Position numbers and translations under genes: made by a program. Shown here in pieces: positions 29,423-61,000 of a stretch of DNA of 64,000 nt; position 1 is the first letter of the stretch, and each line of letters opens with the position of its first letter. The stretch is from Yuukianura sp. NJ FZ-2021 (lineage: Eukaryota). The notes beneath the pieces were generated by a model. The model was not told the DNA's origin. It ran no database searches and saw only the letters and a program-made list of their open reading frames with translations. The stretch lies in contig CM102285.1 in NCBI GenBank assembly GCA_046563655.1, positions 12,834,001 to 12,898,000 of the forward strand, read 5' to 3'.

Positions 29423-29645
29423 CCCGAATCTAAACGAAAAGTCAAACTCTCAAAGCTCACAAAGAAAAAAATTTCCAAAGTTTCAAAATTTCTAAAAACG
29501 ACCAATTTTTGGTTTAAATGTTGTGACAACCTGTTTCTTGATTGAGTAAATTATTGACATTTGCATGTAAATAACTTTCCAAATAATTTCTTACTTGTGC
29601 TTTCTTTGCATTTTTGTCTTTCAAAATCAAAACCGAACTTGTTTA

Positions 29646-34967: not shown

Positions 34968-35560
34968 TCCAGTACGTGAAATTTAAAAATTTTGAAATCG
35001 ATTTTTGAATAATTTTGAAAAATACGGAAATGCTTCTGAGGTATGGTAGAAGGAACAGAGTTGTTCAAATATGACTCGCTTGTAGACCAAGGCATTTGCA
35101 ATAAAATTTTGAAAATGGTGCGAATGAGTCGAAAATAACTTTTAAACATTTAAAAAAATTTCAGGGTCAACCATTCGTGAGCTTGACCTTTTGACCTCAA
35201 AGATGTTGAAACTATCCTATACTCTTTCTAAAAAATGTAGATGACCAAATTTGTTAATTGAAAATCATAGATTTTGAAAAAATCGAGATTTAGCTAAAAA
35301 GTTGTGGGAAGAAAGTAAGAAATTGATTGAATTAAAATAAATATTTCAAAATTTGGAAAAATTGGATACAAATTTCATTTCATGTCGGTTTCTGCTGCCA
35401 TAGCAACTCCCAGTACCACTGGTATTTAAAGTTTAGAAACAATTTGACTTGCAATTTTCAAAATGGAACCACAAACGAAGGTTACTCTCGATCTCGGCCG
35501 AAGCAGTTGCATTTGAAATTGCTGTCAGTTTTCTGTGAACTCCAACCGTTGACCTCTTCC
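34968..35560 (+). pseudogene. Decayed duplicate of SDR2 3' exons plus the downstream DnaJ promoter region
   Basis: Aligns by eye to about 27704-28360 (GGTATGGTAGAAGGAACAGAGTTGTTCAAATATGA; AATCGAGATTTAGCTAAAAAGTTGTGGGA; CTGCCATAGCAACTCCCAGTA; GTTTAGAAACAATTTGA). In-frame TAA near 35135 and deletions in the last exon. Confidence 0.85.
35394..35407. promoter_or_regulatory. Candidate RFX X-box (duplicated copy)
   Basis: GCTGCCATAGCAAC, about 190 bp upstream of ATG 35596. Confidence 0.5.
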
Positions 35561-35595
35561 AACTCAAACGCTTGGACTGGCTGAACTCGATTCTA

Positions 35596-37064: not shown

Positions 37065-40009
37065 AGCCAACGTTCAGAACAAGAAGAAGCCAAAAGCAAC
37101 AACATCAACTCCGCAAATCATCAAACGACAATCAAAACGTAATTTTGTTTGAGAAAATTTCTTGTAATGTCAAAAATGTTTGAGAAGAAAGAAGGACGCT
37201 AGTAAGAATTCTGTGAAAATGACGAACACATTGTACAGAAATACAATTTTAAGCATTCGAGCTGTTATGCTCCCGTCTTTCTAAAAACAAGTATTGTGTT
37301 CAGTTTTATTTCAAAAGTTGTTAGAAGTGAAAGAAGGAAGCGCGAGGAGCAGAAAAAATGCGAACAACTAAAATTGTTTCCCAGCGGAACAAGACCGAAC
37401 TTCGGTATAAGGCTTGGATGTTTGTCTCTGGAAATTAAATCATGTAATTCGATCATCCGAAGCTTTTTGGGGGAAGAGAAGTCCATTGTCACTTGAATTC
37501 CTTCTTATCCTCACCTTATTCCATCAAGTCCTGGAGGATTGGGAGTTGTCTAAGGGCTCCTAGGAGGGGACTTATAGAACATGAAAGCGTTTTTACTCAA
37601 TTTACTCAATCCTCAAAGTACATAAGCGTCTTTTTCCCATTCATCCCACGCCTTTTTCAAATAAAACTTCCTTTCTCCATTGTCGAAGTTCCGTCGGAGA
37701 GAACAGAATAGAAGTTTCTGCACAAAGAACTTTGAAGAGATGAGGATCGATAGGCAAGACGTCCTTCCAAGACGGCTGCCTCTACGAGCAGACATTCTAA
37801 AGAAAAACCTTGGAAAGAAGATCAAAAGCCTAACAAAGTCTAATGAGATCTTTAGAACTAGAGCCTAACGTCCCATAGGCTTTAGAAGTTCCCTGAACGC
37901 TAAGCAAATTCTAGTTGCATTCTTAGAAAAATCACAAAAATCGAATTCTAATTTGGAAAGCGGAATTGGTTTTTAGCACCTTTTTAGAAATGAAAATGAA
38001 GCCAAATTTTCCGGAGTTTCGAAAATTTCAAATGCTTCCGTTATGGATGCATCCTCATTAAATAATTGTTCCAGTTCTGTGAATCTGGAGAAACGATGTG
38101 TGCACTGTGTCATTACATGGCTTCGGACTGATTAAGTTTCTCCTTTTTTAAAAAAAAGCTCACCGTGTTCTACTTTTTTAGAAAAGTTGTTTGAAGGTTC
38201 AAAGGGGGGTGAGAAAATAAGGGTATTTGGGTTTTGACGAGTCAAACAAGCTTAAGGGAGAAAGAAGAAGCTTCAAAAACGCTGTTTCGCTTCAAAAAAT
38301 TTGAAAATGAAGCCAACCGATTCCTAATTCTGTTTGACATGGCTCCAAAATTCTAAACAAAATAACACAGCTAGACTTTTATTACTCTCGTTCTTCTTTA
38401 TACATCTCCAACTTCAGTTTTAAAAGTTCGAAAAACGAAAAATCAAATTGGGCAGAGGCAGAAATTTTCAAAAATTGACTTTCCGAAATTCGTCAATTCT
38501 ACAATCGAACAACTTTGGCGCCATTAATATTATTCACGACTCAAGAAATTCGTTCGCGATTTCACCCAGATCCACTTTCTCCTTCAGAAAATTGAAACTT
38601 CGCGATTTTTGTTCTACAAAACCAGAATTTTTTGCTTTTCCCGACATTTTTTCGAACAATTTATGGATTTAGGCATGCGCTTCTTGTATTAAAAAGCTAA
38701 ATTGATTATATTGTAGTATTCAGATGTGCATGAGATTGAAGAAAGTGTTGAATTTCGGGGATGCTGCCAGTAGTAAAGTATTGGATGCTTCTGAAATGCA
38801 TCTTCTAAAGTTCCGTAACCCGACCATTTGGACTCAAATGTCCTTTATGACAAGGACCTTTACCGTGTGTGGCACGCTACAACTAGTCATCTTCAATGTC
38901 ACATTCAAACAGGACTCGTGAGCAGTGCTTCAACTTTACTAACTGGAAAGCTATAGCAAAAGGCGGAAGCGGTAGAATTCAATACTAGAAATTATCTGAT
39001 ACAGAAGAAGAGCACTTGTTAGGTTAGGTTGTTGTTGCAGTAATTCTAGAATCACGGATTTCTGTTACACTTGATCTTATGTAATGGATTCCTTAGTCTC
39101 CCGCTTTATAGGCCAAATCTCTCAAATTCAAAGTCAAAATTTGAACTTTCTCTTTCTTCCAATTTCCAATTTGCAAAACTTTGAAGCATTTCAAAACATT
39201 TTGCTATGTGCTTTCCGTTTGAGCTTGAATTTTAAAAAAAGAAAAAAACAAGAGCAGAAAATTGTTTCTATCGACGTACCTAACTTTCATGTGTGACGAA
39301 AGTAGGCGGAATTTTTAATTTTTTGACAAGAGTTGTGGTGTGTTTAATTTGAAATTTTTGACATTTGACGGGTGAAGTCCTTGCTTAGTTTAATTTCAAA
39401 TGTGAGCAGCAGGAATGATGCATTGTTTCGAAATTAGATCGGGGGGTTGGTTTGGAACATTTCGTTTTTGGTAACCTGAGCTTTTACCTGAACACAAGGA
39501 ATGGAAGGAAAACGTAGGAAAGTTTTTCTGGGCTGCAGCCAACTGTAACGTAGGTTTTGTGTCTGTGCTAGATTGGAATGAACAGGAGAGACGCAGAAGA
39601 AGGGAAAAGTTCATAGTAGAAGATTCAGACACAGATCATCTACGGATCAGCACAACAATTCTAGGAAAGCAACTACCCTCAGCTACTCGTCACACATCAT
39701 CACAAAGCACCCACAGTCCACCACTCTACCTTCACCAACCAACATTCGTCACCCTCAAGTTATTCGATTTTTGAAATAATTAACATTTCCAATTAATTGT
39801 TTCCAAAAACGACAAAAATCAAGGTGAACTTTCTCTCCACTTTCTCCAAATCGTCAATCTTCCGAATCCTCCATTCTGCAGTGTTTTCAAATTCTGGATT
39901 TTAGAAACTGGTGAAAGCAAACTTTGGTTAAATTTTTCGAACTTGAGCTTGTAAAAAAACCATTTTTGAAAATCACAAGAATTCTGAAATTTTCGTTTAC
40001 AATCTAAAG

Positions 40010-43000
40010 ATGCTCTACCATGTTTCATACACACAACCTCATCTACACCACCACCAGCAGGTAAGAAAAAACTTCAGAATTATTAAAGTTTTCAGCATTT
40101 CAGTTGTTCGAAATTTCGAATTTTCAAAAAAATCGCTTTTAATTAGGTTTATGATTTGGTTAGGGTAGTGTTTGTAATTCAAGGTTTATTCCAGCTCATG
40201 CACCACGCCCACTTCCCTCCTCCTCCTCCTCTGCCTTTGATTTCGTAATTTATAAATCTGCCTTTCTCCGTGTCAAGTTTTACAGATTTATGATTCTCGT
40301 TCATTTGTAGTTTCAAAAGCGCGTCAAGAGATGAAAATCTTGAAATGAATAATGAGCAATCATGTCCCAGTAATAACTGGAAATCAAAATTCTAAAGTAG
40401 TGTGTCCATGACTAATAATAGGCAACATCATCCTCCTCGAGCACCCCTCCGCATAAATTTTAATCAGACACCAAATTCCTTGCTATTGTTTCACGCAATT
40501 CTGGACCTACATTTAAAAAAACCAACACTCAAATCCTTGATTTTTAGAGCATAAGAACATATGAAGTGGAGGGGGTGTTATTTTTAAAAATCTGTGGATG
40601 AGCTGTGATTAAGTCATCATAAGCCACCAAAATTCGGGTAGTTTAAAAAAAGTTGAAAAGCGTGCTTCCAGCTGCTGCTGGGTCCATAAAACTAAATTAG
40701 AATTTATTTGATCCTGTTCATCCCTCTCCCAGTTGTCGAATTGGAGATGATCTTTCCAAATTGTCATTCATTTGGGAAGATGAACATGTTTGGAGAACTA
40801 TTATTCTTGTTGAGTCCCTCTTACTTTTGATTCTGTTTATTTGTTCATCTTTGAGACGGAAAATTTTAAGTGTTTCGGTCCAAAGTAAACTTTGAAAGAG
40901 ATTTTCATTCACCCAAACCATCATCATGTCAATCCCGAAACATCCTTGGAACCTACGTCTTCTGTCCGTCTGGATCCATCCTCCTTCATCCGCTCCGCTG
41001 CTTTCTTTCTTGTCATTTTCTTTCAAACGTCAAAATTTACCTTAAAATTTCGTAATAAGAAAATTTCGCAACGATATATTTTCACAATGGTAGATGTCGG
41101 AATCCGAACCGGAGAGCGATTGATTATTATGCAACAGGATTTGAAAATTTTGAAATTGAATTTCTCTGATTTTTAGAGCTGCTTACTTTGTATGTGGGTA
41201 GAAGTAGTCATACATTTTCTAGAGAAAATCATTTGAACAATTTCGAAATAGATGTTTTTCGACTAGAATCAAAACAATTATTTTGAGAATAATGATCTCT
41301 TAGTACAGAAAACGTGAGCCCAAGAATAACCACTTCCGTTTCAAAACAGCAAATATCATTAGAAAGCACAGAAAAGAAAGAAAAAAGTGAAAGTAAGTAC
41401 ATTTTCCAGGAAGAAAACTATTTTGCGAAACAAAACGAAATTGCTCCAAAGTCCAATTTTCTTTGGTCTCTCAGTGGATCGAGTGCCGCGTATTTATTAA
41501 TAATTTGGATGATTATTTACAATTCTTGCAAGTAATTTGATTTTTTTGGGCTAAAATTGTAAGCAGTAAAAGTTCCAAAAAGAAAATCTTTTTTTAGATT
41601 AAATGCCAACCAAAACTAAATCGGAAAATCCCATCGTTAAAAATCACGCCTCAGCTAGAACTTTTGTCAGCCGGCGTCGGAATGACTTCATTTTTTTCAA
41701 AATCTTTTTTTTTTTCAAAATTTTGACGAAATTAGGACAGACAAAAATTAAACATGAATTTCTCCTTCCTGCTGCGCGCTTGTCCGTTTCAAACTTTTTC
41801 TGGATGTTCTAGAACGTTTTTGAGAGACAGTACAGAGGGGGAAAATGACAGACAAGCAGGATTCAACACACCTGGAAACTCCGAAAATCTTTGAATTACA
41901 GAATTCACAGGAACACAAACCCGAATTTGAATTCTTTTCATTTAAAAAGGGCCTGAGAGAGTTCAAACTCTTTTTAAAACAGTATTTAAAAAATCAAAAC
42001 CAGAAAAGATTTAAAACAAAATGAACTCTGAACTTTTCTTCCTCAGTTTCCGTCAAAGATTGTCTTACTATAAAAATTCTTTCGGTTCATCACTGACAGT
42101 TCCCCGTTTCTTATTTTTTGAAAAAGTGCAATCTCTTGATTTTTTTGAAATTCCTAAAGAGCAGTTCTAGAAGAATTGAGAAAATGAAAAGGAAATTGAT
42201 GAAGGCGGATTCAGTTTCAGTAGTTTTTCAGTTTCAGTCGTTTTTGTGTATCCATAAATCTGGATGTTTAAGAATGTTGTGAGAGTTATCATCAGGGTTG
42301 TGCTTGACTGAAAAACGGAAATGTTTTATGAAGTGTTTTTTAGCTCTTTTGAACACTTACTGCTCATTATGTGCTTAAAAGTATAAGTAATGGTTGGGGG
42401 TGAAAGTCAATGAAGACGAAGAAGCTGTTTTAGAAAATGGTTTGTTCTAAACAGAGGGGAAGACAGCATTCCATTCCACAAATGTTGACGATGGATTCAT
42501 CAATCCTAAATTCAAAAGTTTAAAAAAATGTACAATTTGAGATTGAGACATCAATTTTTCTTGTTTGACTTTGCAAAAGGAAGCCACGACTTTTCTGTTT
42601 AGAATTGAAATCGTCCTTTTGATTTCAAAATCAAACCACAAAGATCTTCTTTTGCAATCAGAAATTTTTGAAAAGCAAGGGTTAAGGGCCCACGACACTT
42701 TCGGTTTAGTAAGTTGAAGGGCCACCTGGAAGGGGGTCCTTATTGTACATCTAGAAACTACAAGTATCCAATTTCACTTGTGTAATTTTTGGCAATTGAT
42801 GTTCTCTAGAGAGGTCAAATGATTTCCAATAACTTTCGATTGAATGAATCTGATTCCCTTGGAGGATCCAAGTTCATCTTCCTATTGTTATTTTCTATTC
42901 AATTCCAAAAGGACAAATCCAGTTCCACTTTCCCAAAAATAAATCATCCCTTCTCTATCCTATTTTATTGAAAAAGTTCCAACTTTCGGATCTAAATTTA

Positions 43001-46000
43001 TTGTCTTCTCAAAACCGAAAAAGAGAGGAAAGGGTTGAGAAAAAGTGAAGAAGCTCCTTAATCAAAATCCGAAAAAGGATTTCAAAAAGATAATCGAAAA
43101 ATCTTCTTTTCAATTTTTCAGTCCTTTTGAATCTTCTTTTTGAATCTTTCCAAAATTTAACCCATTCCCACGCTCATGTCAAAAGGATTCTTCAATTTTT
43201 CTGGAAAAACCCGAAAAACCTCAAAAAGATCATCCAACTATCCAACAATTCTTTTTGAGGAAGAATTTTGAAAAGTGTATCAAAAATTTTGAACCCAATT
43301 TTGTTTTTAATTTACATTGTTGCAGCTTCTCTGCTTCCGCAATAGTTAGAAGCTAAATACAGGAGCTTATGCCGGTTTTTGTTGACGTTTGGCCAGTACA
43401 TTCATAGCTTCGTAGTGTAGAATATACGTTTCAGCGGAATTCTCGCCTACAATTTTTGGGTGATAAGTTTTTGTTTCTGTCTCTCTGAAGTAATTACGAT
43501 ACATCGTGTGTAACTCTTCGCATTTATTTTCCGGTAGAAGTTTTGCCAATGGATTAAGTGAAAATGCAAAATCTGTAAATTAGTTACAAGCAATTTGCGT
43601 TAACTTGTTTAACAAAGTATGTTTTCCAGTAACTACACTTTATATTTCAAATGCCAACCTACCTGACCATTGGTCCACGTCTTGGAATGCATGAGTGCGT
43701 TCCTCTTTGCTGAAACTTTGAATAGTAAATCCAGCATTCTTGAAAGCATTTTCAACAATCCGTTCTTCGTTTTCGTACGTTAGACCCCATTCCGGCAAAA
43801 CCAAATGCTCCTGTAACGCAGAAAATACAATAAAAATATGGCATAAAATTGTAGGCGAAATTTTAATGTATTTCAAATAAAATTAAGTATTAAATATGAA
43901 GTTAGTAAATTTTTGCTTACTTTCGCTATTGCGCCCCAGCGTTCATGAGACTGAAGTTTCTTAAACAAACCAAAAACTGGAGTATGGACCACAAAAAGCA
44001 TGAATATTTCTCCATCATCCGGAAGTAGGTCATGTAATGCCTTCAACTCATTTCTGGAATTTGAAATTGCTTATTAAATTGTTAGCTTATTAAAAGTTAG
44101 GTTTTTCGAAATTATTTTATACTTGTAGTCATCCACCAGATGAAGCGTGTAAAGTGACAAGATGATGTCAAACTTGAGACCACGAACTGGGGATTCAGTA
44201 GAAGTGATCTCTCCGGAAACATATTTGATTCGGTCATGTGGGTATTTCTCGCGTGCAAATTCGGTCATAGAAGAAGAATTGTCGAGCGCAACAATCTTAG
44301 AGTTCCATTTCTCGGCCAATGGAAGTATGAAATCAAATGCAGTCGAACCACAACCACAACCATGATCCAAAATCAAACTGTTTTCTTTCCAGGTTAATTT
44401 CTTTTCCAACATTGGGAAAACTTCAGGGTAATGAGCTTCGCAAACTCCGCGTGTTGAGTTGTACAGTTCTGCACAACGTTTTTTATCCAGAATGCTCTGG
44501 AAAAAGGAATTTCTGATTAACAACTGGGGACGAAAGATGTATGAATTTTGTCCAATTGTTAAATTTTCAATCCCAAATTCTTTAACTTGACAAACTTCTA
44601 AACTTACCGCAACAGTATTCATGTTTTACTCCAGAACAGCAAAAATAGTTTTGATTCTATTGTTTTTCAGAGTAAATACAGTAAGTTCAGGTCCAAGGTT
44701 TCCAAATAATAATATAAAGACTAACAGCCAGGAACGGGTGACTTTGCAGGGACGTCTGAGAAGATTCAGCAAATTGTGGCAGAAATACACAAAGTCCCAA
44801 GGCCAAGCAATCTGATTTTTTCCTCACAGCTCGCCAATTGGTGTTATCCAGAATTCATAAACTTTTCTGTAATTATGCAATGTCCATAACCTAAGATAAT
44901 ATACCCCTACAGTACATCTAACAAGTTAAACAAGTTAAACATTGGGAAACACGAAGGTTTCTTTATTTAAATTCACATAGCCTGCGTAGATAATTACAAT
45001 TTGATAGCAAAATCAAAAGTTTAAACATCGAAAAAAAAATGTAATTAATAATTAGACACGAATTTTAAGTGCAAATCCGGTTATCTCAATTTCCCTTTCA
45101 ACGTTTTGTCGATGCATATCTTCAAAAATTCAACAAATTGTGAGTTTTTTTTTGTAGTTTTAATAGCTAGTGGTCACTGCATGATTCGTTTTTGTCCTTG
45201 CAAAATACTAACCGCACCATATTCCAAATCAGCCAACCCAATATCGCGAAAACTCCGAAAATCCGCGAATCCAAGAGAACTCGGGAATAAAAAAAATCAT
45301 TAGGGAAAGCGTCAAATCCTCTCCGGGGAATGCCAACACATCAAGCGGAGTTCGTTTTTTTTTTCGAAAAAGACAAAAACGCCGAAATTTTGTTGTTTCA
45401 GAATTGTATAAGGTTGCGGGTACTTGTTTAGGTGGATTAGCGGCGGGAGCGCAGAAGTGGTTGCGTGGTCCGCCCAGTTGGATCGTAGCGTAGGCGATCG
45501 ATGAAAGCAGGCTGCTGAGAGATGAAGTCTGGACGGGAATAAATGGGCGTTAGTGTGAAAAGTGTATTCTGATGGGATGATGATGGTTACGCTAGGGTTA
45601 CCCCTACTCTGAATGGGATATGATGATGATGATGGTTACTCTAGGGTTACCCGAAGAGGCAGATCATTAATCCTGGTCCTTAGGCCTCTGAGATGGTGGT
45701 CGTAAATTTCATGGCACCTTCCTCTCCCGTTCCTTTTGGAATTGTCAACTACTACCAAAAAGAACAGTTTTAACATTCCAGGGACATGTAACAGGAAGAT
45801 CAAGAATCTTGAGGAACGTATAGCAAAGTTCCAACATTTTAGTTGAAGCTTAACGTATGATCATCCACCCCAAGTCATAATGGTGACAGTTCCTGCACGG
45901 ACGGAGTCACTGGAAACCAGTCCATTAGCATCTCATATTAATTATTGTCCACCCGGGACTTTGGTCACCACCACAATCTACCCTACGCATCTCCCTTCCA

Positions 46001-49000
46001 TTTTTTAAATAATCCAAGCTTCATCTCCATGCACTGAGCCATGTCCAAGATACGCTACAAAAAAATTACCCCAAAAACTTGGCCACCCACCCCCTTCATC
46101 ATTCACTTAATTCGAAAGTTTGCATCTGGCCACTTTTGGACAATTGAATTCAATCAAAAAACTTCCAAAAATGGCTAAAAATTCTCCGTAACTGCAAAAT
46201 TCAAATGAAAAGTTTCAAAATTTCAAAAACCGATTGGATTATGATCTCAAGTTTTCGTTTAATTTAATTTTTTATGCTCTAAAAAGTTTTTGAAAATCCT
46301 GTTTTATGAAATTTTTCTACTCTTGTTTGAAGATCTTCCGAAAAATCGAGTGTAAAGTTGTATCAACACGAACTTTAAGTTTAAACTACAAGAAAGGTGT
46401 GAAATGGAGTCATAACAATTGTAATTGTTAGACTTTTAAGGGCTAGCGGACCCTTCAAAGTCTCTCTTTGAAGCTTTTGTTGAAACGTAAGGTCCTGGAG
46501 TGTTGTCCGCTAACATCAAGGGCCCCCTCCCCCATTGTTATTCTGCCTAATGATTGTTATGATTTCAAAGGAGTGGAGACTCCTGTCACCGTAAATCTAA
46601 GTACATTCAAACCAGCGGGAGGTCACGCCAGCATTCAAGCCTTCTTCCAATTGTCACCATTACCAAATATTCTAGACGAAGAATTACGTTAGCGTTAGGC
46701 TGAAGTTGACAATTCATTTGTCACTTTCAGTATAAAAATTCCGGACATGGAGGTTTCAAATCTTTCCCAAATTCTGTTTTCTATTCTAAAAATTTTGAAA
46801 TCTGAAAATCTGAGGTGCACTTAAATCCTCTTCACACCTCCATAATCACACCCCTCTTGGACCATATTTATGTTCAGAGTGAACCTAGTTCAGATTCATA
46901 GTGATTAGGAAAATGAGTTCATAAATTGTGGACATTCGAGATTTGAACACAAGTTTTGGCTTGTGTACAAATAGTGACCATGACCCGTCACCTTCATACA
47001 GAACTTTGTATCCTCCCCTCCTTAACTTTTGACTAAATCTGAACCTATGTGAGACATTATTTTACCTCAAGTCAAGATTAATTCACTTGACCATCTTCCA
47101 TTTTAAGAGTAAGAAGAAGAGTCTCAACCTGATTTTCAAGTTTTCAGATTTTTATCATATTTTTCTAAAACAAACACACAAAGTCCTGATCTCCAAAGAG
47201 GACTTGTGTTTTGATGGTTTCAAAATGCGTCTCTTCCCTTGCTTGTTCAAAGTGAAGAACGAGTTTAGATGAGCATCATTACAAATTTGCTTGAGTCAGA
47301 TGCAGAGGGGAGAATCTTGTTTGAAAATTACTTTAGAGGAATATTTTTTTCTCAACAATCCAAGTGACAAATTTCTGTTAAACTTTGAAAAGAAAAACAA
47401 ACAGCACACCGAATCCTCAAAAGAGACCGAAACAACTTTTGCAATTTAATTCTCTCGCCACTTGTTCTCGCTTCATTCAAAATGCTAAACAGTTTTGTTA
47501 ATTTCCACAAGATTTTCATTCAAAACAAAACCACAAAAGACTATTTTTTGTGAGTTGCCTAATATTTTTGCCCTCCTGACAGTTTTTAGCGAAATTTTAT
47601 TAAACACTTCTGTCTTTTTGTAAGTTTTAGGACAAAGTGTTAGAATTTATTTCATAATTTTATCAAATTAGGCTCTTTTTTGTTCTAAGCCCAAGCCTAA
47701 TTGCATTAGGCGTTGAGTGGTTTGAGGATTATGCGGAATTTTTAGTGTTCTCGTCATCATAACCTCGTGGTTTGGCTTACGATAAGCCCAAATGGAGGTC
47801 ACATGTTAATCTAAAAAAGTCCAAAACCTTGAGTTGTGTTGGTATACTCATAGCATAACAAATTGGCAAATTCTTATAGTTATCACAACTTTTTGCAACA
47901 CTTAGTATGTGCAAAAATATTTTCCCACAGTTTGCAAATCCGTTCTTCCTTTCCTGTTCTAAATTCCACATTTCTATTTCAAAATAGTTTAGCACTTTTA
48001 TATTTTTTGAACTTTTGTGATAAACTGGAGGGCGTCAACTGAATAATTGATCCCCTTTGAATTTGTGCTAAAAGTTGGTGAGCTAAAAGAAACAAAAAAT
48101 GAAAAATTTCACAATTTTTGTTTTCAAGTTGAAAAGTTTTTGCAGAAAAGTGGATTTCTAGAAAAGTGGAAAGCGTAGCACCTGTGGACACTTTAAATAT
48201 TAAATGAATCGAGCTTCATCGATTAGCTTGTCAACTTTTCCAGGATTTTGACAGGTTCCAAATCACTTTATTTTGAAATCCACAGAAACAAACAGTTAGT
48301 TGACTAAAAACTGAAGTTGAAGAGCAAAGCTCCTCTGATAACAGGAGTAAATTGGACTTTAAGTGGAAATCGTCAGTTACTAACGATTCACAATTTAGCT
48401 GTGAGTCGTGCGATACACTGAGTCATCAACTTCGCGTCAAACTTTACTCCTTCCGTGTCCAAGTCCATGTGATAACTCCACAGATTGCTATTTACACGTC
48501 AGTTTCACATCCTTTATAACATATTTCATAAGAAGGACTGTGCCAAAAGAGTCCAAAAAGTTCTGGAGTGATCAAGTATCAACACCTTTTGTTTAATTCA
48601 ATTGACAATACAATACAATACAATGTTGTCTTTTCTGGGAAAACTGGTTGACCCAACAAATCAATACACTTCATACTCCCATTTAGTATTTTCACAGTGT
48701 CTCGTGTGGGTCATCACACTCGTCGTGGGAAATGTCACGACAATGGCATTTGCTTTTCAGGGATTGGTCGTTGGAGGCGTTTTTCTCAATGTCTTTGACC
48801 CATCTTCAATCACAGCGTCCTGGATACTAACTTTCTTCTGGATTTGGTCACTCGTGGAAGTTCTGTTTTACTTTTACTGTGTTCTGCTCAAGAAAAAGCT
48901 GGAGACGCCCATGACCTTGCCAAATTTGACCCTGGAACAGAAAATATATTTTCTGGAAAAAGTTCTAGAACAAGCTGAAAATCCATCGGCAGCGCTCATA

Positions 49001-52000
49001 CGCTGGTTTTATTTGACTTCAACAGAAGACTATGGTGTAGAAAGCTTAACAACGTGGATAAGCTGGGCATTTTTTGGAAAGTTGGAATGTGACCTCTCTG
49101 AAGACGAACACCAAGAGCTTGAAACGCTTGTGCGAAAAATTGTTCAAAAATGTCCAGAAATTGGAAATCCATCGCGAACAAATCCGAAGGAGTTCATGCG
49201 GCTTCATCTTGACGAAGTTGCTGTTCAACACAAGCCATTTGTGGCATACGCGGTAAGTTTAAGCCTAGAATTCAATTTTCAAAATTCTGAAAAAATTCGA
49301 AATTTCAATTTTGATAAATGTCGAAAATCCTTTTTAGGTCATTTCGGGCATGCAAGGTCTTGGATATATGTTTCTGTCATACCTTGGATTTGAACATCAC
49401 AAATTTTCTGGACAAGAGACAGCATTGTCTTACTGGACATACGACGGTACTTCAAAAACCGGCGGAAACCGAACTCAGCCGACAGATTCCGAATCGAATC
49501 GACCAATTTTCATCGTTCACGGAATCGGTATTGGGATTGCAATGTACTTCAAGTTGGTTCAAAGCGTCGTGAAGGCAAATCCAGACCGAAAAATTTTCCT
49601 TCTAGAACTTCCCCACATAAGTCTCAAAGTTCTCGACAGAATTCCAACGATTGAAGAAACGCTTGCAGCAGTTGACGAAATCTACGAACGTCATTCTATC
49701 CAAAATTGTTCTTACTTGGCACACTCTTATGGAACTATCGTCACAACATGGATTTTGAAAGAACGTCCAACGTTTGTATCCAAAATTACTTACGTAGATC
49801 CAGTTTGTTTTGCCCTCTGGGAACCAGACCTCATCTACAACTTTTTGTACCAAGCTCCACCAAGTCCAATTCATCGCCTTTGTCAATTCTTTCTTGCACA
49901 GGATCTCGTTGTAGCGTCGACTCTGTTTCGAAACTTCTCTTGGTTGGACAACATTTTATTTCCGGATGAAATTCCATGTCCTGCCAATGTATTCATCTCT
50001 AGTCATGACTTTATTATTGACCCACAAAGTAAATTTAGATACTTGGAACTACATAATAAACGGGTCGAAGGTCGACCGGACAAAGGTCAACCTGTGGGAG
50101 TCAAAGTCATGGAAGGACTGTCACATGGAAGCGTTCTCAGCTCGGCTGAACATATTGTACAAGTCATTAAGCATATTTAAATATAAGCACAGCGTTTTCT
50201 TTTAATAAATCTCTAACTTTTTGTGTTCCTTGAAATAAATCTTGCAATTTCACAGACTATGATCGCTTGAATAAAAAATTGGACTTTTGGAATAAAAAAT
50301 TTCAAGGCTTGAATGAAAAAAAAAGTGGACTTTTGGATTACAAATTTTCCATTCTCGAATTTTTTGTTGTTTTGCTTCCCTTTGAGGAAAGTGCTTGATT
50401 TTTTCCACTTTCTGAGTTGAAAGTTAAATTTTGAGAGAAACTGAAACGAAAAGAGCTAAAAGTTGGAAACTTTGAGAGTGTTTTGTTATATTTTTGACTG
50501 AAACTTGTTTTGATGCGTCCTGAGTGGTTTGTCTTTTAGTTTTGATGATTTGTAAATGTTTGAATTCGTTGTGAAGTGATCTGTGGTGGGTTTTGAGATG
50601 ATTGGGATAATGGGAATTGGGGAGGAAGTGTTTGGTGGGTCTGGATTCGGTGGGGCCTCACTTGACTTGACATGACCGGATGCTTTTTCCCCCTTTATTC
50701 TTTTTCCCTCGTAATTACATTTGTCGAAGCCTAATGGACTCTCGCCTTGAACAAATAGACTTTACTTCCAAACCACCAATTCGGGACTTTCCTTTACTAC
50801 CAAAGTGGACCAAATTGATTCTGTTCCTACTGGAAAGCTCCATCCATCGACCCCCTGTCATCCCATCCTCCTCCATTAAAAGCTGTTCCTTTTCATCAAA
50901 ATGGAAGAAAAACAAAAGAAAAATAACCACTCAAAACACTCTGGTTTAGCGCTTGCAACTTCAAAATGTTAAAAGAAAATCAGGCAAAATTTGAAATAAA
51001 AATTCTAAAATGACGTCAAATTGAAGAAATTCCAGAATCTGCCCTCCAAAATTTCCAAATTTTGAAAATCCCAAACCAAATTACTCATTACTTTCTCTTA
51101 GCGGCATTTCATTTTTTCCATTTTAAATTTCGGAGTGTCACTTTGGGTAATTCTGGAGGGTAATCGTGTGTTTTCAGAACTATAAAAAGTTGAAAGTGGT
51201 AATTTTTTGAAATTTTGTTTTTATTTTACGTGTGATGGAGTGTTTTTGTGTTTTTTGGAGGGCAGTGCATTGGTAAACTGACACTTTTTAATAAGCAGAC
51301 TTTGAAAGATATGCAGTGTTAGGTTGGATACGTCCTACCTCTGGTTCACAGTCGTATCAAGTGCTATCGTCAGTTTCAGTTTTCAAAACTATGGCGGCTG
51401 TGTGGTAGGTGATTCGATCGATCCGTCAAGTATTTCCAAAAACTCAAATGAAACTTCTCACTTTCCACTTCTGCTCAAATTCATGCCGACAACAACCTGT
51501 TTCAATGAGCACATTCTAAAAATGGAAAAAACGAACTACGTTTTCTAAAGAAAAAAAAGCATGTTTCTGTTTTTGGAATTTTGTTGGTTTCAAAAGTTTG
51601 ATCAGCGATCTCCCATGCAGAAGAAGTTATGTTGAAACACGCAAAATTTGGAGAAATGATTCACCTAATTTTATATTTTCATGTCATGTGACATATCCTT
51701 TGATCTTTGTCTCTTGTACGACTTATGAAGATGCTAAAGACAAGATGATGCTGATGCTCTCGTTTCTCACACCGTTTTTATCATGTCATCGTTTTTTCAT
51801 GTTTTTATTCTTGTTTTTTTCTTTGTCTTTTGAGATCTTGTGACAAGGCCACAGAGCCAGACATCCTCCTTGTCATTTCCACTTGGACCAGGATTGAATA
51901 AAGACCTAAAGTTACAACATTTTGTGGTTTCCGTCAAGTCCAGAGTTGGTGGGCGTAGAGAGAGGTCAAAGTTCGTGTGATTTTATGGACCGATGGAATT

Positions 52001-55000
52001 TTGAAGTGAACAACAGAAGGGTGTGTGTGAGTCTTTGACATCTTTCTGGGTCTGTGAACGAAACGACGCATCGCATCTCCGCTTCTACCCGACTCACTCC
52101 AGACCCCTTTGTTCAAGGGCTGTTCACAGCATCTCCACTACGAACAAAATATCAATCTCATCTTCCACCACCACTGTAAACAGTAGGCTTCTTCGTGTGA
52201 ACTGGGACACAAGGCCTCTTGTTTCAAAATTTTTAAAAGTTGAAAAAATTCAAGGACTAAATTACACCGAACTCGAAAAAATTTGGGCCACCACATATTG
52301 ATTCAAATCACGAAAGTGAAAGCAAACTTTCACTTCTGAAACTTCTTCTTCGACAGCTTCTTAATTTAAAAAGTTTAAAATACAGTTCAGTGTTTCTCAA
52401 AAAGTTGACACTAAGAATGTGAAAGTTTTTTGAAAAATTTTGGGAAGTTCAACCAAGAATTTTACCATTCTTCATGAAATATGTAAGTTTTTGCACCCAA
52501 GAGTTTGAAAGCCTTTTAAGAATACTTCAAAAAATGAATTAGAATATGTGTGCAGATGATCAGATATTCTTTTGTCATTAGTTCGTTTTTAAAAGTAGGA
52601 GCAATATCTTTGCATTTTGAAAACTTAAAAACTTTAAAAAGGAAGTAATTGAAAAAAATTCAGTTTTTAATATGCAATTCACAAGATTTTGAGAAAATCT
52701 TGAACTTTTAAAGTTTGTAAACACAAAATGTTTTGCTGACGCCAGTTTTTTTTTAGTTTCTCAGAATGCTTTCTCAAGAAGTCAACTGTTTGACCCATTT
52801 ATAAAATTTAACGCTTTCTGTTTTCAACTTTTAGTTTTGAATGAATTGAAACTTGCTTGGCCACGCTACTTTAGAAGATAAAATTTTGAAGTTAAAGCGG
52901 TACCTTGGAATTAGTGTGAAATTTAAGTGTTGAAAGCAGCGATTAGAATCTTAGAGCGCCAGACTTTCCAAATCCTGCACTGTCAAAGCTATGTCCGTTT
53001 TCTCAGAAGTGTCATTGTTCCTCTTCCAGCCCCAAAGTAATTAACACTTAGGATAATACTCAAAGTGTCAATTTGATAATCACGCCACAATTCATAACAT
53101 GAATGTCCATTTCTTAAGTAAAAGGCTGCTGGCTATGCATTGTCCTGTTCTGTGACGTGACTAACTCACAATTGTTTGTCTAGAACACGATGCTCTACAT
53201 TTTGACACTTTTGATTAGTCTGGACTTGGACAAGAAAGTAGTCTGTAGGAGAGAGAAGCATTTTTTCAATAACTTTTTTTTCAGAGTTGTTGGTGTCAGA
53301 TTTAGAACTTTAATTGCAACTGCATTGCAGACTACTGCAGTTGTGTTAGACTTATGACTCATCGCGACTGCTTAAGTTCAAATCAATCGGCAAATCAACT
53401 TTCTAGTGACCTAGTTCTTCCCGACGCAGACAGTTTTGATGCGTCTGCTGATGTTGCAGTGATTGAGCAATTGTGAGAAGTAGTAATTTTGAAAATTTGA
53501 GGCCGAGTATAATATAGTGAGAGCAGAATTTCAATTGTCCTAATTTTGGATAAAAAAAAGTAGTGAAAATTTTGAAAATGTTTTTTGGAGATTGCATCAA
53601 TGACGAAGAAAGCACAAACTCTACCATCTCCAGCTTAGTAGCTGAAGTGAAAGTCAAATTGGAATTTGAGGAAAGTTCTGTGTTTGATTTAGATTTTTCT
53701 TTTTGTGAACAATCACAGGTCAAACGCTTTCGTCCTGACTCACATCTTAGCAATAGTGGAGCCCATGACTGCCCTGAACCTTTGTAAGTAACTTTTTATG
53801 AATTTTCGAAACAATTTTTTCAAATTTTGTAATCTAACGTCCATAAAGTCAAACAAAAAATTTGTGCGAGCAACACAATCCTAAATGTGATTCTCTTAGC
53901 TCAGCATAAGCCATACTCCATACTTCAGCTCGTTGAAAGAAAGTTTCAGCAAAAAGAAAATAGAATTTTTCATGTTTTTTTCGCTTTCGAGTTTGCAATT
54001 TCATTATGCTGCTAAAAGCGGGCAATTCAATGTTATCATTTGGATATTTTGCAACTGTCTGCTCGTGTTTAGTTAAAAGTTTAATGCTCTCCGTTCCCAG
54101 GCCCTGAGAGTAATTTCTACTAAACAGAGACATAACATAACAATTCCGTTTTAGAGTAGGGTGTCAAAGGTCAATGTTTTCTTTTTCCAGTTGACTACCA
54201 AAGTGTCAACTTCCCAAAGTCTTCAGTTGTCATCAATCCATAATGTTATGAGCTAAGTTCATAACACTATGGTTACAGAGTCATTAAATGCAACTTTGGA
54301 ATTGGTGGGGCCTGGAAATGGTTTTCAGGTGGCAGTTGGTGGGGCTGAAGCAGAAGAGGGGTTAAGTGCCTCTTGTGTTATTAATAACCATTATTCCAAT
54401 TGCCCAAAACCCATGACACAATGTCAACAGAACTCCAAGTTGGACCACTTTTTGTTCTTTTTCAGAACACTTCCAACATAGTTTGTGTAGAAATGGATGT
54501 AAAGTTCTTTAGAGCTTTTTAAAAAGACGAAGTGGGCAAAGGAGCTCTCTTTGTTGTCACTTTTTCTTGGGATCCATATGGACTCCATATGGGCTTCCTC
54601 TGGATCCTACTGATTCTTAAGTCTTAAGAGTTCAGATGCTGTTTTCATCGCTTCAAAGAAAGGTTTTTGGCCCCAGAAGTACAAACAAGAAAAGTAGTTG
54701 GAGAGATTGACCTCACATGAAATGTCTCCCAGTTAGAATCTTAAAAGTTCCCTCCTGCCTTAAAATGTTCAAGTCACCATCATCGTAAGTCCCCACTTCT
54801 GGAAGTTCTAGGAACAGAGGCAAGGGTTCAGGGGGGCCCTTGGACATGTCGTCGGAGACACTCTTCAGTGCATGCAAGGGACAACCACTGCCCGAGTCAC
54901 TTTTAGAGTCCACATGTGGCAATGATTCAGCCAAGAGTCCAACCCCTAAGCTTTTTGTTCCAAACCTGGCGTTTGAGCTGGAGTTTTTTTCACAATGTAA

Positions 55001-58000
55001 ACAGAATGAGCAAGAAAAATGTCTTTCTGAGCTAAAAATTGGAAATTTTAGGTTTTGAACACAATTTTTAAGGCAAATCTTTCATAAAATCATAAAACTT
55101 AATCTTTTTTTTAGTTTTTGAAATAATTTTCAAAATTTTGAATTGCAGAGTGAATGTGGGTGAGCCGGTGAGTCCTCCTGGGTCAACTCTGAGTTCCCCT
55201 GCAGAGACTGATGTTAGTCCGCACTGGAGTCACTCGAGCAACATGGGACTCAGCTCAGAAATTCCTAGCACAAACGGTACGGAAGTCAGAAAGTGAAATT
55301 TTGGTGGTTATTTTCAAAATTTCATAAAATTGAATTCAAAATTTTGGTTTTAAGGTGATTTGAGTGTAAAAGATGAGGTGAAGCCCTCATCTTCTTCTGA
55401 AAATCACCACGGGGAGTCTCCTTTCTCCAATTCAGATTCCGTGGGATCATTTTCTGACAAACCATCGGAATTCACTGCAGCCGCTTACCAGCAGCTCTAC
55501 CAAAGGTAAACTACTAAAACTTTAAAAGTTATACATTCAAAGCAAATTAAAATAATATTACTACATTAAATGTAACAACTTTGTCAAGAAATTCGTTCTA
55601 AGTGCATCATTTATGATAACAAATGACAAATGGCTTAGTGTTTACTTAACTTCCGTAATCTGATTCCAGAAATCGATTTTTAGAAAACTAATGTCTAAAG
55701 TCCAGGAAGATCCTACATGTGAGGAAGCAAATATGGAGGATTATTAGCATTATGAAATTTAAGACTCGTCAAATTAAATTATATAACACGAAAACGCTGA
55801 AATTTGTTTAAAAAAATTAACTTACAAGTGTGTTTTTTTTTTCAAAATGCGAACAGTTTTCAAAGCTTTTACGCACGCGACATTCTTCGGCGTTTCAGTA
55901 ATTAAATCTGCTTCTCCCGGTATAGAATTTCACAAGGTCAAAGAAAACGTATCCGAATTCAGAACTTTCTCGCAGGTTGAACAAACTACCGTCTCAAATT
56001 AAATCCAAAGGTCACACACATAACATTCCATTTCATATTGTTCATTCACGTTTTGCAATATTAACAACAATTTCTCAAATTCAATATTTTTTGGTCAATT
56101 TTGAACTAAAGTTGTCAAAAATTCTGTTCATTTCAAAAAGATGAATGAGTAGCTTGTCCAAACTGAGTCAATTCTTTGAGATTTTTAAGATTAGTTCAAG
56201 AAGCTTAACATCTTAGCAACTCCGTCGGGAACCTTCCTTTTCTTTTGACATTTTGTTCTGAACAAACACACAGCACCCATGTCATGTCAGTTTTAGAGTT
56301 TTCAAAATCTGCATCACCCATCTCTCTCCTTGAAAAATTGAAAAACTCCCATCTCCCATAAGAAATTCAACAAAAATCTTTTTTGAATACCAAAATTTTG
56401 AAAAAGGTAGAGGGATTTTGGGATGCTCCAGAAAAGACTGTGAGGGGATGCAGCATCCCTCAAAAAATGAATAGAGCGTAAAAGACTCTCAAAAATTGTA
56501 TGGTAACAACGCATGTAATTTGATCGGATCCAATGGATAATGGACTTTTGTAGTTTTTCAGAAAAAAAGAAAGGGAGCGATGGCAGGGACACGTTATTAT
56601 TATTAGGGCCCTTGGAAAAGGTAATACACTTCAAAAAAGAGAGGGACTTTCTCTGGGCCCTTCAGTTTTTCCAAAAAGCCCCTTCATGATACAGACAGAC
56701 AGTTATTGCCATGGAAATCCTGTCTTCATTCACACGTCATCTGAAGGGCCCCCTTGTACTGAGGGCCTGATTCAAAATAGTGCTGCTGGTAGTTAGAGAA
56801 CCGCGGACTTTAAAGTTTTTGAAATTTTGAAAGTGATTTATGATGACATGAAGCTCTGTTAGTTTGAGGCGGACGCTGGAAATGAAGCGATAACCTTCCA
56901 GTAGATAGGCAGTGCGGGAAATGATCTTTCGAAAAAGACCGCCGTGGAATAATAAATGATCAGTTTATGAATGAAGAAGTGTATAACAAAGGGCCCACCC
57001 TCCCTTAGCTTAGGGTAGGCTGTGAGCCCTTGATGAGCCTCCAATTTATATTTATGAACTCCCTGCACCCTCCCTACCTCTCTTTCATTTTTTTTTTTGA
57101 ATTTCGAGATCACGAAATTTTGAAAAGTTCAGATGATCTGATTGATTGGAGATTGTGTGTGAGAAGTGGTGAAAGTCGTATGATAAGAATCCAGAACACA
57201 ACTTCCCCAAACTGTGCCATTTCAAAACTGACTTTCACTTACGGATCAAGTCAAATTCTCTAAAAAATTTGAACGACGTGAAATCACTGCTAGAGTCAAA
57301 ATTGAGTAAGTTTTGAAATTTTTAAAAGCTAAAATTTTCTAAATTTGATTTTCAGTGGAATGGGTGGGTACAATGGTGGTTCGTACCTTCAGAGTTCGTC
57401 GTTCTACAACGGGGGTCAAGCGTACCATGCCAGTAGCGCTGCAGCCGCCGCCGCTGCTCTTTCACAGTCATACCCCGGTGAGTAGCCCTTTTATTTTTAT
57501 GTCAACACTCCTGACCTCCCGTCGACAGGCCCTTCAAGGGCCCTCTTTCGCTTTACAACAATGGACCAGGAGGGCTTTTCATTCTGTTTTTACAACAATC
57601 GAGTCCCAGGCTCAACCAAAGCAAAATGGAAGGATTTAGAACTAAGCATCAAAATTCATCTTCCTCCTAAAAACCTATCCAGAATCAAAAAAGCTTTAAA
57701 ACTTCAATTGGCTTCTAACAAAATTGTTGAAATTCTTAAAATTCGTCTTAGGTGGAAGAGGTCAGTGCAAAGGCGGGTCGAATCCCTCCTACTTGTACGG
57801 TGGCTCTCCCTTCCCGAATGCTAGTTCCGGTGGGTCCTACCACGGAAGTGGTGGATCCAGCTACTCCAATTACCACCACCAAATCCCACCGACCTACCAC
57901 CACCATCCACCCGACTACGGTTCATATGCCTCCACGTTTCAGTCAGCCTCCACTGCCTCTGCGGCTCCAGCCTCCGTCTACTACGGACATCCAGGAACCA

Positions 58001-61000
58001 CTGCTACGCCCTCCTACTACTACAACGGCTCCTCCCCCACCTCGGTCTCCGCTTCAGCAGCCGCTGTAGCTCCATATCCCATCACTACCAACACAACCAT
58101 TCCAGGTTACCAAAAAATAACATGTAAAGTTAGTACAAAGTTATAAGAAAAACATAAAGTTTGAAAAAAAAGTTGGGCTTTGAATTCCTGAAAAGCGGGC
58201 TTTCACCTGCCACTTTCTCCTGTCATGATTTTTTGTAAAGTTTGGCCTGAGGCGTTCTCTTTTTCAATTTTGGAATTTTAATAAGATGCTTTTTTTCAAT
58301 TTGTGTTTTTAGACAACGTAGGATTCCTTCCGGGCGAACCGAGCTCTCCTTCTCCAACCATTAGAGAAACCAAACCCAAACGAGGTATGGGAAAACTTTC
58401 TCTCTTTTCTTCTCCAGGGGGAAAATCCAATTAAATTTCGGTTTTTTGTTTGAAACTTTTTTTTTGAAAACTCTCCCGGTTTCTTTTGTGTGTTGGTTTA
58501 GCGAGAAGCGGCGGACGAGGACGAAGGCCCAATCCATCTCCAGATCCTGAACATAATTTGGAAAGAGTGTTTGTGTGGGATTTGGATGAAACTATTATTC
58601 TGTTCCATAGTTTACTTAATGGAGCCTACGGGGAAATGTTTGACAAAGTAAATCCGCTATTCAAAATTTAGCATGTCCAAAATGTGTCTAAACTTCAAAA
58701 TTCAGAACTTTCACTTTTACTTTCTCTTTGATTTAGTCTCTCCAGGACATCGAGCTAGGAATCCAACTGGCAAACTCTCTTGAGCAATTTATTTATCAGT
58801 TGGCAGAGCGTCATTTTTTCTTCAATGATCTCGAGGTAACTTTTTTTTATGAAATCCCATCAAAAATTGTATATTGTATAATAATTCATTTCATATAATA
58901 ATCTGTGAAACTACGGTTCGCCTTTGGCATACCGTGCTTCAGCCCCAACTTTCAATGCACACTCTATCCACAAAAAACGAAAGCTTTTGAGGAATTCTTC
59001 CCTTTTCTCACAAAAATTCAGTTACCAACACAAGGATGGAGCATGGAAATACTTTAATTATATTTAAATTCAACAATAACAGTTAATTAATTAAACTTAA
59101 AATTGAAATTAAACACAAATTTTGAGTTAAATATCGAAATTTGAATGTTCCCGTAACATAAAACTTATGAAACTTATAATACCTGTACAGTTTGTATAAT
59201 TCTAAATCCCTCATTTCCCGAATTTTTTTCATTGACGTTTGCAATAACGCTGCTTGGATTTTTTTGTGTTTCAAATTAACAGTTCAAAGTACCAGAAGTT
59301 TAAAAAATCCTTCATTACGCTAACAGTATTCAATTAACACTAAAACTAAAACTAATAAATATAGAATAATTTTAATTTTATGTATTATTATATTCATTAT
59401 ATATTTCTTCAATGATGCAAGTTTGTTGTTGTTTTTAGGACTGCGATCAAGTTCACATAGATGACGCATCTTCAGATGACAATGGTCAAGATCTAAGGTG
59501 AGGAAAATCGTTTGAAACTAAACCAAAAATGAAAGTAAGAATTTCAAAATTTTCAATTTTTGCTACTTTTTATTTAGTACGTACGATTTCCTGACGGACA
59601 GTTTCAAGTCAACTACTGCCGGTGGAATGGCTCTCAACGGAGGTCCAGTTCGTGGTGGGGTTGATTGGATGCGGAAGTTGGCATTTCGATATAGAAAAAT
59701 CAAAGAGGTTTACACACTGTATCGACATGATGTTAGAGGTAATACTTTACAAAAATATATTGCTTATTCAATGTAATTGCACTTAAACTGCTTCATTATC
59801 CAATTGAATTTTGGCTTTTAAAAACTTCCTGAACCATTTAAAGTCTTTTTGCGTGATCAAATTTCTAATGGGATAATTCCTATTTCATCTCTTGGCTTCA
59901 TGCATGATTCTTATTGTTACACTTCCGACTCCTTTTAAGTAACAACTACTACGGAAATCACCACTTGTCCAAATTGTTCAATTTTCGTGTCCATTGTGCA
60001 CAAGTCCATGACTGACCTGTCGACACACTGCAATGTGGGCCATATTTGGACTTTGACAGAACAATTAATCGTGGGCAAGTGTGACTGACTCTGACGAATT
60101 CAATGTCATTTTAATCAAAGTTCGTCGATTCAACCATTTAGAATCGGAAATTCGTCAATTCACAATGAGAATTGCATTTTCAATGTCAGAATTCCAAAAT
60201 CCGGGTTTCGTTAAACTTCACAATCCTGAATGCATCAATTGAACTGTGAAAAAAATAAAAAAAAATTGACAATTTCATAATTTCAAATTAAAATTATGAC
60301 AATGAGTAAAATTTCAAAATTTTCTAAATGAACTTCATAGGGCCAACTTCAAAGAATGCTTCGTTCAAACTAGAGTTGAGTTAGAAAACTATTAAAGCAT
60401 TAGTTTCATAAAGTTCAGACGCTGTTTGACACGTTGGCTTTTTTTTTCTTCATTTTTTAAAATTTCAGATTTGTGAAAATTTAATTCCAATTTTATTTTC
60501 AATTTGCAATTTTTCCTTATGAATTTTGGATTTTGGCGTCCCATGCCACGAGAACAAATTTTGCTAAAACTAATTGAGTTTTCACCAATTAATTAATAAT
60601 TTCCATTGTGTAATTATACTTTCTAGCGTAGAACTTCCCTGTAAATTCTCACACTACGGTACTATAAGTGTGAAGTTGTAGCTAATTAGTCAAGGAAAGG
60701 TGAGATATTCCAAAAACTACGCTTATTCCCACCAAAACGTATTATGTTTTGTATGTAATACGAGTACTAAGGAAAGATCATTGTTTTTCCAAATTCATTT
60801 GCGGAAATGTTCTTAATGGTACGATATGCTTCACCAACTTTGTCCTTATGTTCAGCAATAAAATTTTTCACAGAGTTTATAATTACACTGAACAAAAAAC
60901 GCTAACAGCTTCCTCATTTTTCCTCAAAAGCTTGTGAAAAAATTACGCTTTTTATATAAAAATTCAGTTTTACATAATCCTATTCTTTTACATTTAGGTT

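Follow-up and report, generated by a model that had tools for sequence, protein, structure and literature searches.

The 64,000-nt stretch of DNA analyzed here (contig CM102285.1 of the Yuukianura sp. NJ FZ-2021 assembly GCA_046563655.1, positions 12,834,001 to 12,898,000, referred to below as the window) carries on its plus strand a gene for an α/β-hydrolase that is, with a probability of roughly 0.8, a functional host gene descended from a fungal gene by fungus-to-arthropod transfer. Outside a small group of arthropods, the nearest relatives of its product, as judged from sequence, are enzymes of the arthropod-pathogenic fungi of the subphylum Entomophthoromycotina; the direction and the number of transfers we infer. 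A preliminary description of this DNA read the gene as a horizontally acquired α/β-hydrolase of fungal/protist type, a kind not known from typical animals and now resident in the host. This reading is supported by phylogeny, approximately unbiased (AU) tests, and base composition, as well as by the conserved position of the intron and by purifying selection.

The gene comprises 490 codons in two exons separated by a single intron, as reconstructed from the raw sequence and two stop-to-stop open reading frames (ORFs) on the plus strand, 48572-49393 and 49338-50180. Exon 1 (48623-49252, plus strand, 210 codons) begins with an ATG at position 48623. This start codon is backed by homology, the window protein having been compared with the N terminus of a metagenomic relative (locus L003, see below) and with the sciarid N terminus MVLRLLGTLIEPTDRY. 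The spliceosomal intron (49253-49337, plus strand) is an 85-nt phase-0 intron with the boundaries GTAAGT..TTTTTAG and a GC content of 23.5%. Exon 2 (49338-50180, plus strand, 280 codons and the TAA stop) encodes the whole α/β-hydrolase domain. An AATAAA sequence (50204-50209, plus strand), 24 nt past the stop, is by its sequence the likely polyadenylation signal. The coordinates proposed in the preliminary description, 48623 to 50180, coincide exactly with this two-exon model, and every motif of the series it listed is present in the two exon translations. Its single intron over ∼490 codons is correct for the window gene but does not extend to the closest relative, L003, which has a second intron.

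Homologs of exon 2 were collected in a phmmer search, exhaustive over 1.84 billion representatives, which returned 1917 matches at E values of ≤1e-3, 1206 at ≤1e-10, and 110 at ≤1e-30; the Conidiobolus protein had an E value of 7.6e-64. In a word-indexed search with the same query, the springtail protein LOC110857667 of Folsomia candida was found at an E value of 1.6e-79 and an α/β-hydrolase of Conidiobolus coronatus at 2.4e-63, values that put the homology far beyond chance. Among the best 150 matches, 30 cluster look-ups provided 19 organism names (11 were nameless), and the word-indexed protein searches, which gave few matches (3, 8, and 20), added 5 more. None of the 19 organisms named by cluster look-up is an animal. 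Twelve of them are Entomophthoromycotina (Entomophthora muscae, Massospora cicadina, and Neoconidiobolus thromboides), and the other 7 are Calcarisporiella, Meredithblackwellia, Spizellomyces, Physocladia, Aphanomyces, Mesostigma, and Cladocopium. The names from the word-indexed searches are F. candida (48-50% identity), the sciarid fly Pseudolycoriella hygida (41%), C. coronatus (40%), Thamnocephalis, and Jimgerdemannia. Animals thus make up 2 of the 24 organism-named relatives, the springtail and the sciarid, and both belong to the arthropod-type clade described below. The other named relatives are fungi, plus one oomycete, one streptophyte alga, and one dinoflagellate. Even the closest named fungal proteins are only 35-45% identical to the window protein. 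In the ESM Atlas, exon 2 matched only generic α/β-hydrolase clusters, the nearest from Mucoromycota, Ascomycota, Basidiomycota, and Chlorophyta, and exon 1 had no usable match.

In a FastTree phylogeny of 170 rows, the window sequence falls together with those of Folsomia and Pseudolycoriella into an arthropod-type clade of 23 rows with a support of 100. Its neighbor is a clade of 25 rows, 14 of which have organism names, all of them Entomophthoromycotina; with the addition of C. coronatus, the two clades form a 49-row set (support 99) separated from the 121 other rows. A maximum-likelihood tree was built with IQ-TREE under the LG+C20+F+G4 model from 442 columns and 54 of the 170 rows (exon 2 of the window gene, the 24 organism-named relatives, and 29 unnamed representatives). 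In this tree, the arthropod-type clade is supported at 100/100 and divides into a springtail-type sub-clade of 8 rows, which includes the window and Folsomia sequences (95/90), and a sciarid-type sub-clade, also of 8 rows (100/99). It groups with Entomophthorales, Neoconidiobolus, and Massospora at 96/91 and, once C. coronatus is added, at 100/99. On these sequences, the hydrolase is placed next to the candidate donor group and against the species tree.

This placement has to be set against ancient vertical inheritance, in which a gene of the opisthokont ancestor would have survived in fungi and a few arthropod lineages but disappeared from almost every other animal. Such a history would fit the pan-eukaryotic spread of the family (fungi, oomycete, streptophyte alga, dinoflagellate), the depth of the arthropod-type clade (45-65% identity internally), and the fact that two distant hexapod groups share the gene and the intron site. 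However, an AU test rejected the tree in which the 19 named fungi were held together against the 16 arthropod-type rows and 3 named non-fungi (log-likelihood difference of 147, p-AU of 3.2e-31). The non-fungal rows were needed in this constraint because in an unrooted tree the arthropod clade alone already represents one side of a branch. A control in which fungi and arthropods were held together against the 3 non-fungi was not rejected (log-likelihood difference of 27.6, p of 0.09); what the test rejects is thus the separation of the arthropods from the entomophthoralean fungi. Since the arthropod clade also joins one fungal subphylum specifically and the organisms named by cluster look-up include no animals, vertical inheritance appears improbable.

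Even less probable is a transfer in the reverse direction, whereby an arthropod gene would have moved from the host into the ancestor of Entomophthoromycotina. The sister relation between the arthropod-type and Entomophthoromycotina sequences is symmetrical in itself, and a tree with the 17 Entomophthoromycotina-type rows held together was not rejected (log-likelihood difference of 5.8, p-AU of 0.235), so that an arthropod clade sister to this subphylum is indistinguishable from one nested in it. Nevertheless, the joint clade is embedded among fungi, algae, and protists, which means that the arthropods would still need an outside source. In addition, the best tree puts C. coronatus outside the group of arthropods and the other Entomophthoromycotina (96/91), and the fungi have many paralogs, 11 E. 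muscae proteins being among those listed. A fungus-to-arthropod transfer remains the preferred direction.

Signs of residence in the animal genome are present in the form of a host-type intron, host base composition, and purifying selection. The coding sequence of the hydrolase has a GC content of 0.421, or 0.396 at third codon positions (GC3), compared with 0.37-0.50 and 0.33-0.51, respectively, in eight neighboring exons. Animal genes recognized by Pfam matches (PHM/PAL, gelsolin, TTLL, RPGRIP1-like, DnaJ, and a methyltransferase) or, in the case of eya, by a match to human EYA2, flank it on both sides within the window. The host may be a hexapod, given that Folsomia is the named relative closest to this gene (48-50% identity) and that the neighbors are of animal type. 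The stretch is contained in 4 public DNA runs from 2 studies, and their short contigs run past both ends of the gene into the same flanks. The word depth over the hydrolase, a weak measure, stays within the range of the flanks.

These data also bear on an assembly artefact, in which contaminant DNA from a fungus or another eukaryote would have been misjoined to animal DNA. No contig from the 4 runs joins the hydrolase to a flanking animal gene, so that their linkage rests on the assembly, as such an artefact would allow. Contamination is nonetheless the least credible of the explanations considered here: GC and GC3 are host-like, the intron and the flanks are AT-rich as in the host, the short contigs enter the same flanks in both studies with unremarkable depth, and no named fungal protein exceeds the 35-45% identity given above. 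Moreover, relatives of the hydrolase sit on animal-type contigs, namely, L003 and the contigs from Folsomia (3.5 Mb) and Pseudolycoriella (155.8 Mb).

A metagenome scan yielded four loci, L001 to L004. The closest relative of the window gene, 65.8% identical over 477 codons, is encoded by L003, a 13,094-nt contig that carries protein P0016. Over these codons, the synonymous divergence (pS) is 0.73, i.e., saturated, the nonsynonymous divergence (pN) is 0.22, and dN/dS is ∼0.10. Next to its hydrolase, L003 carries a guanylate kinase gene and a choline-transporter-like gene, and none of its ORFs of at least 50 amino acids outside the hydrolase matches the window. Because of the saturated pS, the low dN/dS, and the other neighbors in L003, the hydrolase can be considered old in its lineage, constrained, and not tied to eya. 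A conserved linkage of the hydrolase to eya was accordingly rejected for L003, which shares only the hydrolase with the window. Loci L001, L002, and L003 come from one metagenome data set; they encode springtail-type copies that are 55%, 43%, and 65% identical, respectively, to exon 2 of the window gene and could represent three species or paralogs. Locus L004 (31% identity) is a single uninterrupted ORF of a GC-rich organism and is uninformative on introns in the donor lineage.

The first intron of L003 (97 nt, phase 0) lies at exactly the same site as the window intron (AYV|VISGM in L003), the shared pattern being AY[A/V]|VISGM. In L001, exon 2 begins with VISAMQ directly past a stop codon; the corresponding TAG in the window includes the AG of the intron acceptor. 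L003 has its second intron in phase 1, inside the Tyr codon of KITYVDP, and the ORF of L002 breaks at the same place (KI[TS]Y|VDP); L001 and the window gene have no second intron. Among the sciarid-type proteins, P0005 has, between GYL and VISLMQ, an insert of 21 in-frame residues, the first being V and the last Q, which is missing in P0004 and P0006; the N terminus of P0158 reads ...FFCFSQ|VISLIQ. The insert of P0005 appears to be a retained intron, and the start of P0158 an intron tail, both at the site of the window intron. The sciarid-type proteins also share with the window protein the N-terminal motif LGxL[VI][DE]PT.

A sciarid sister clade with an intron at the matching site would point either to a single entry into arthropods, with later spread from one arthropod to another, or to parallel uptake from one donor lineage. 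Two independent fungal transfers, one springtail-type and one sciarid-type, from close donors that already had the intron, seem unlikely. Springtails and sciarid larvae both live with and feed on fungi and are plausible hosts of such fungi, and neither sub-clade is nested in the other, each forming a monophyletic group of its own (95/90 and 100/99). Against this stand the absence of any sampled fungal sequence between the two sub-clades, their joint monophyly (100/100), the common LGxL[VI][DE]PT motif, and the same phase-0 intron site, as well as the springtail/mite-sciarid gene flow reported for cytochrome P450 and terpene synthase genes in PMC12051294 and PMC11665903. In the former, 28 “alien” P450 genes of Bradysia coprophila are assigned to springtails (17), mites (10), and fungi (1); in the latter, canonical terpene synthases are described as common to Sciaridae, Collembola, and Acariformes, with transfer inside the phylum, from mites. 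A gain of the intron in the host, followed by passage of the gene between soil arthropods (from the springtail type to sciarids or in reverse), with the intron as the marker, can be put forward tentatively, at somewhat less than even odds.

The AlphaFold2 model of exon 2, built from an 80-sequence alignment (mean pLDDT of 94.9, pTM of 0.92), displays alternating strands and helices in the canonical α/β-hydrolase order. Foldseek matched it to at least 500 α/β-hydrolases in the PDB at a probability of 1.00, with the Bacillus subtilis hydrolase 2r11, PlaF (6i8w), and human ABHD6 (7ots) at the top (TM of ∼0.6, 12-13% identity). In sequence searches against the PDB, exon 2 gave only weak generic esterase/lipase matches, none better than E 0.18 with a single sequence. 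Some of its relatives carry precomputed PF00561 matches; no Pfam family was recognized in exon 1.

The presumed catalytic residues are all encoded in exon 2. They include Ser340, the nucleophile in the elbow A-H-S-Y-G (49725-49727, plus strand; S130 in exon-2 numbering), Asp434, the presumed catalytic acid in SSHDFII (50007-50009, plus strand; D224), and His473, the presumed catalytic base in GLSHGS (50124-50126, plus strand; H263). The only invariant columns of the 80-sequence alignment are H129, S130, and G132 of the nucleophile elbow, and D224 and H263 are nearly invariant; in a 20-sequence alignment, Ser, Asp, and His are all invariant. Judging by this conservation and by the order of the residues, the Ser340-Asp434-His473 triad is intact. 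The His271-Gly272 pair of the HGIGIG motif (49518-49523, plus strand) is the presumed oxyanion-hole turn, a role that we assign from general knowledge of α/β-hydrolases; G62, G64, and G66 (exon-2 numbering) of this motif are nearly invariant in the 80 sequences. An in-frame CTG insertion polymorphism at position 49449, accompanied by several nearby base differences at 49453-49494, is seen in contigs of runs X1, X2, and X4; these changes fall in a poorly conserved loop ahead of HGIGIG.

Exon 1 encodes hydrophobic helices at approximately residues 20-57 and 64-88, followed by a conserved helical region; Kyte-Doolittle averages over 19-residue windows reach at least 1.6 near residues 27-36, 49, and 72-81. 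In the Conidiobolus protein, its homology is to the N-terminal half, at 29% identity over 156 amino acids (E of 1e-15); with the sciarid protein, it aligns across all its 210 amino acids (31% identity, E of 1e-38). A full-length model of the Folsomia ortholog (pLDDT of 85) has long helices at 49-67, 69-85, and 95-124, followed by the helical region and then the hydrolase core; the N-terminal part of this model had no structural match in the PDB. The protein is most likely a membrane-anchored serine hydrolase, with the two N-terminal hydrophobic helices as the probable anchor, and the chances that its substrate is a lipid ester are about even.

Combined, these features suggest the following scenario. 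An ancestor of this animal, in a soil micro-arthropod lineage that includes F. candida, would have received the gene from the Entomophthoromycotina lineage of fungi; according to PMC10386553, C. coronatus and a species of Neozygitaceae infect collembolans, and PMC5490193 reports 809 horizontally transferred genes in Folsomia, 32.8% of them fungal. The gene would have been transferred whole, with the N-terminal membrane anchor and helical region of its product as well as the α/β-hydrolase domain. The transfer would be an old one: the base composition of the gene is that of the host, a spliceosomal intron is present, the loci differ among relatives, and selection on the gene has been purifying. 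Sciarid fungus gnats would hold the sister clade, with an intron at the matching site. The two N-terminal hydrophobic helices would hold the protein in a membrane, where Ser340, Asp434, and His473, together with the HG oxyanion turn, may hydrolyze the ester bond of a substrate that is probably a lipid of the monoacylglycerol or phospholipid type.

Several points weigh against the origin and function proposed here. Splicing and expression of the gene are predicted from DNA, and its linkage to animal genes depends on the assembly, as noted above. Arthropod identity is presumed for 20 of the 23 rows of the arthropod-type clade; for 3 of these 20 rows, those represented by L001-L003, the DNA shows intron boundaries in all three and animal-type neighbors in L003. 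With the list limited to the best 150 of the 1917 matches, other animals could be hidden in unnamed rows or in 50%-identity clusters. The groups for the AU tests were chosen after the FastTree result had been seen, and, given the p-AU of 0.235, the arthropod clade may be sister to Entomophthoromycotina rather than nested in them. The Pfam scores of exon 2 are below the gathering thresholds (18.0 bits compared to the cut-off of 25.8 for Abhydrolase_1 and 16.7 compared to 26.3 for Abhydrolase_6), the sequence being divergent. Finally, the substrate is a guess by analogy to fold neighbors that are ∼12-14% identical at a TM of ∼0.6.

The preliminary description also placed the hydrolase among animal genes, which agrees with the gene content on both of its sides, and inside eya, which is not supported: the recognizable eya exons are all downstream, on the same strand. 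The ORF at 58468-58671 (plus strand) matches human EYA2 with an E value of 5e-11, further eya-like ORFs lie at 57700-61939, and an eya-like Ser/Pro-rich ORF is found at 55096-55296, all downstream of the hydrolase. In the upstream region 34500-48600, no eya-like exon was seen among ORFs of at least 70 amino acids, a look that a short 5′ exon could escape. The nearest recognizable upstream neighbor of the hydrolase is a methyltransferase encoded by three ORFs at 43367-44625 (minus strand; Methyltransf_25, E of 1.8e-10 in the domain ORF 44074-44625), which may be juvenile-hormone-acid-methyltransferase-like. Farther upstream, Pfam matches identify several exons each of a PHM/PAL-like gene (Cu2_monoox_C and NHL domains; 2751-4958, plus strand), a gelsolin gene (6574-9400, minus strand), a gene for an RPGRIP1-like coiled-coil protein (19757-22612, plus strand), and a gene for a TTLL enzyme (29571-31758, plus strand).

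Three further observations concern these flanks. At 28393-29422 (plus strand), a DnaJ-domain exon (Pfam E of 2.4e-23) is followed by a Thr-rich stretch and then by an ORF with SGAGV[HT]F...TG...C repeats; its repeat units, such as ASGAGVHFRSTG, ASGAGVTFVATG, and ASGAGVTFKAAD, make up an unusual repeat protein. The ORFs at 36259-36480 (minus strand) and 53554-53787 (plus strand), ∼17 kb apart and flanking the hydrolase, encode very similar peptides and look like a dispersed inverted repeat or fragments of a mobile element. In run X5 (second study, organism B), the contig word depth is 19-84 over positions 53840-57975 versus 0-8 over 43500-53839. This jump, which covers the first eya-like exons and the DNA just ahead of them, could reflect repeated sequence or conserved sequence from other contigs.

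With hundreds of fungal genes already described from springtails, another one is no surprise. A donor from Entomophthoromycotina would tie host-pathogen contact to gene flow from the pathogen to the host. That sciarid gnats have this gene too, apparently with its intron at the corresponding position, fits the proposed gene transfer among soil arthropods and provides it with a testable marker. If the gene did pass between arthropods with an intron gained in an animal, it would represent a dated two-step chain, from a pathogen to its host and on to an unrelated arthropod, and add to the springtail/mite-Sciaridae gene flow a case that involves neither P450s nor terpene synthases. An animal copy conserved under purifying selection also offers a convenient route to the substrate of its large eukaryotic family of probable membrane-anchored serine hydrolases.

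Among the known α/β-hydrolases, two structurally characterized ones invite comparison with the window protein. ABHD6 (7ots) and PlaF (6i8w) similarly combine an α/β core and a cap with a Ser-Asp-His triad and an N-terminal membrane helix. Their Foldseek E values against the exon 2 model are 3e-12 to 7e-12, and PlaF ranks first against the full-length Folsomia model. They differ in sequence (12-14% identity, TM of ∼0.6) and lack a counterpart of the ∼200-residue N-terminal helical region; with the full-length Folsomia model, ∼310 columns are aligned at a TMq of ≤0.38. Membership in the ABHD6/monoacylglycerol lipase family was rejected, there being no PDB sequence match better than E 0.18 and no ABHD6 among the profile matches. 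The likeness to ABHD6 and PlaF is, by analogy, one of working principle and not of family membership.

The same full-length architecture as in the window protein is found in the eukaryotic “AB hydrolase-1 domain-containing” family, for example, in proteins of C. coronatus NRRL 28638, E. muscae, Thamnocephalis, Jimgerdemannia, and Aphanomyces invadans (H310_06076), at phmmer E values of 1e-64 to 1e-30. Shared motifs include the hydrophobic N terminus, the helical region WF..W[LI]xWAFF..MRLxLDP..KP, and, in the hydrolase domain, HGIGxG, LELPHIS, HSxG, DPVCF, and NFLY, with Ser, Asp, and His kept. No characterized member of this family was found, and hence it provides no known substrate. The window gene differs from the fungal members in its location in an animal genome, its short AT-rich intron, and its host base composition, with 35-45% identity to the closest named ones.

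The uncharacterized genes LOC110857667 of F. candida and Bhyg_05797 of P. hygida belong to the same clade as the window gene (100/100), with 48-50% and 41-48% identity, respectively. Both share the N-terminal motif, and the sciarid type also shares the intron site, in different species and at different loci. Neither identifier was found in the literature searched, nor did a literature search on horizontal gene transfer from Entomophthorales into insect genomes find anything. In the supplement to PMC5490193, as far as it is readable, neither Conidiobolus nor Entomophthorales nor an α/β-hydrolase is mentioned, although the Folsomia ortholog may still be listed there. Transfers from fungi to springtails and “alien” genes passed from springtails or mites to sciarids are events of the same kind in the same taxa, the window gene belonging to another family. 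The Folsomia study stresses food fungi, such as the mycorrhizal Rhizophagus (PMC5490193), whereas the donor proposed here comes from a group of arthropod pathogens.

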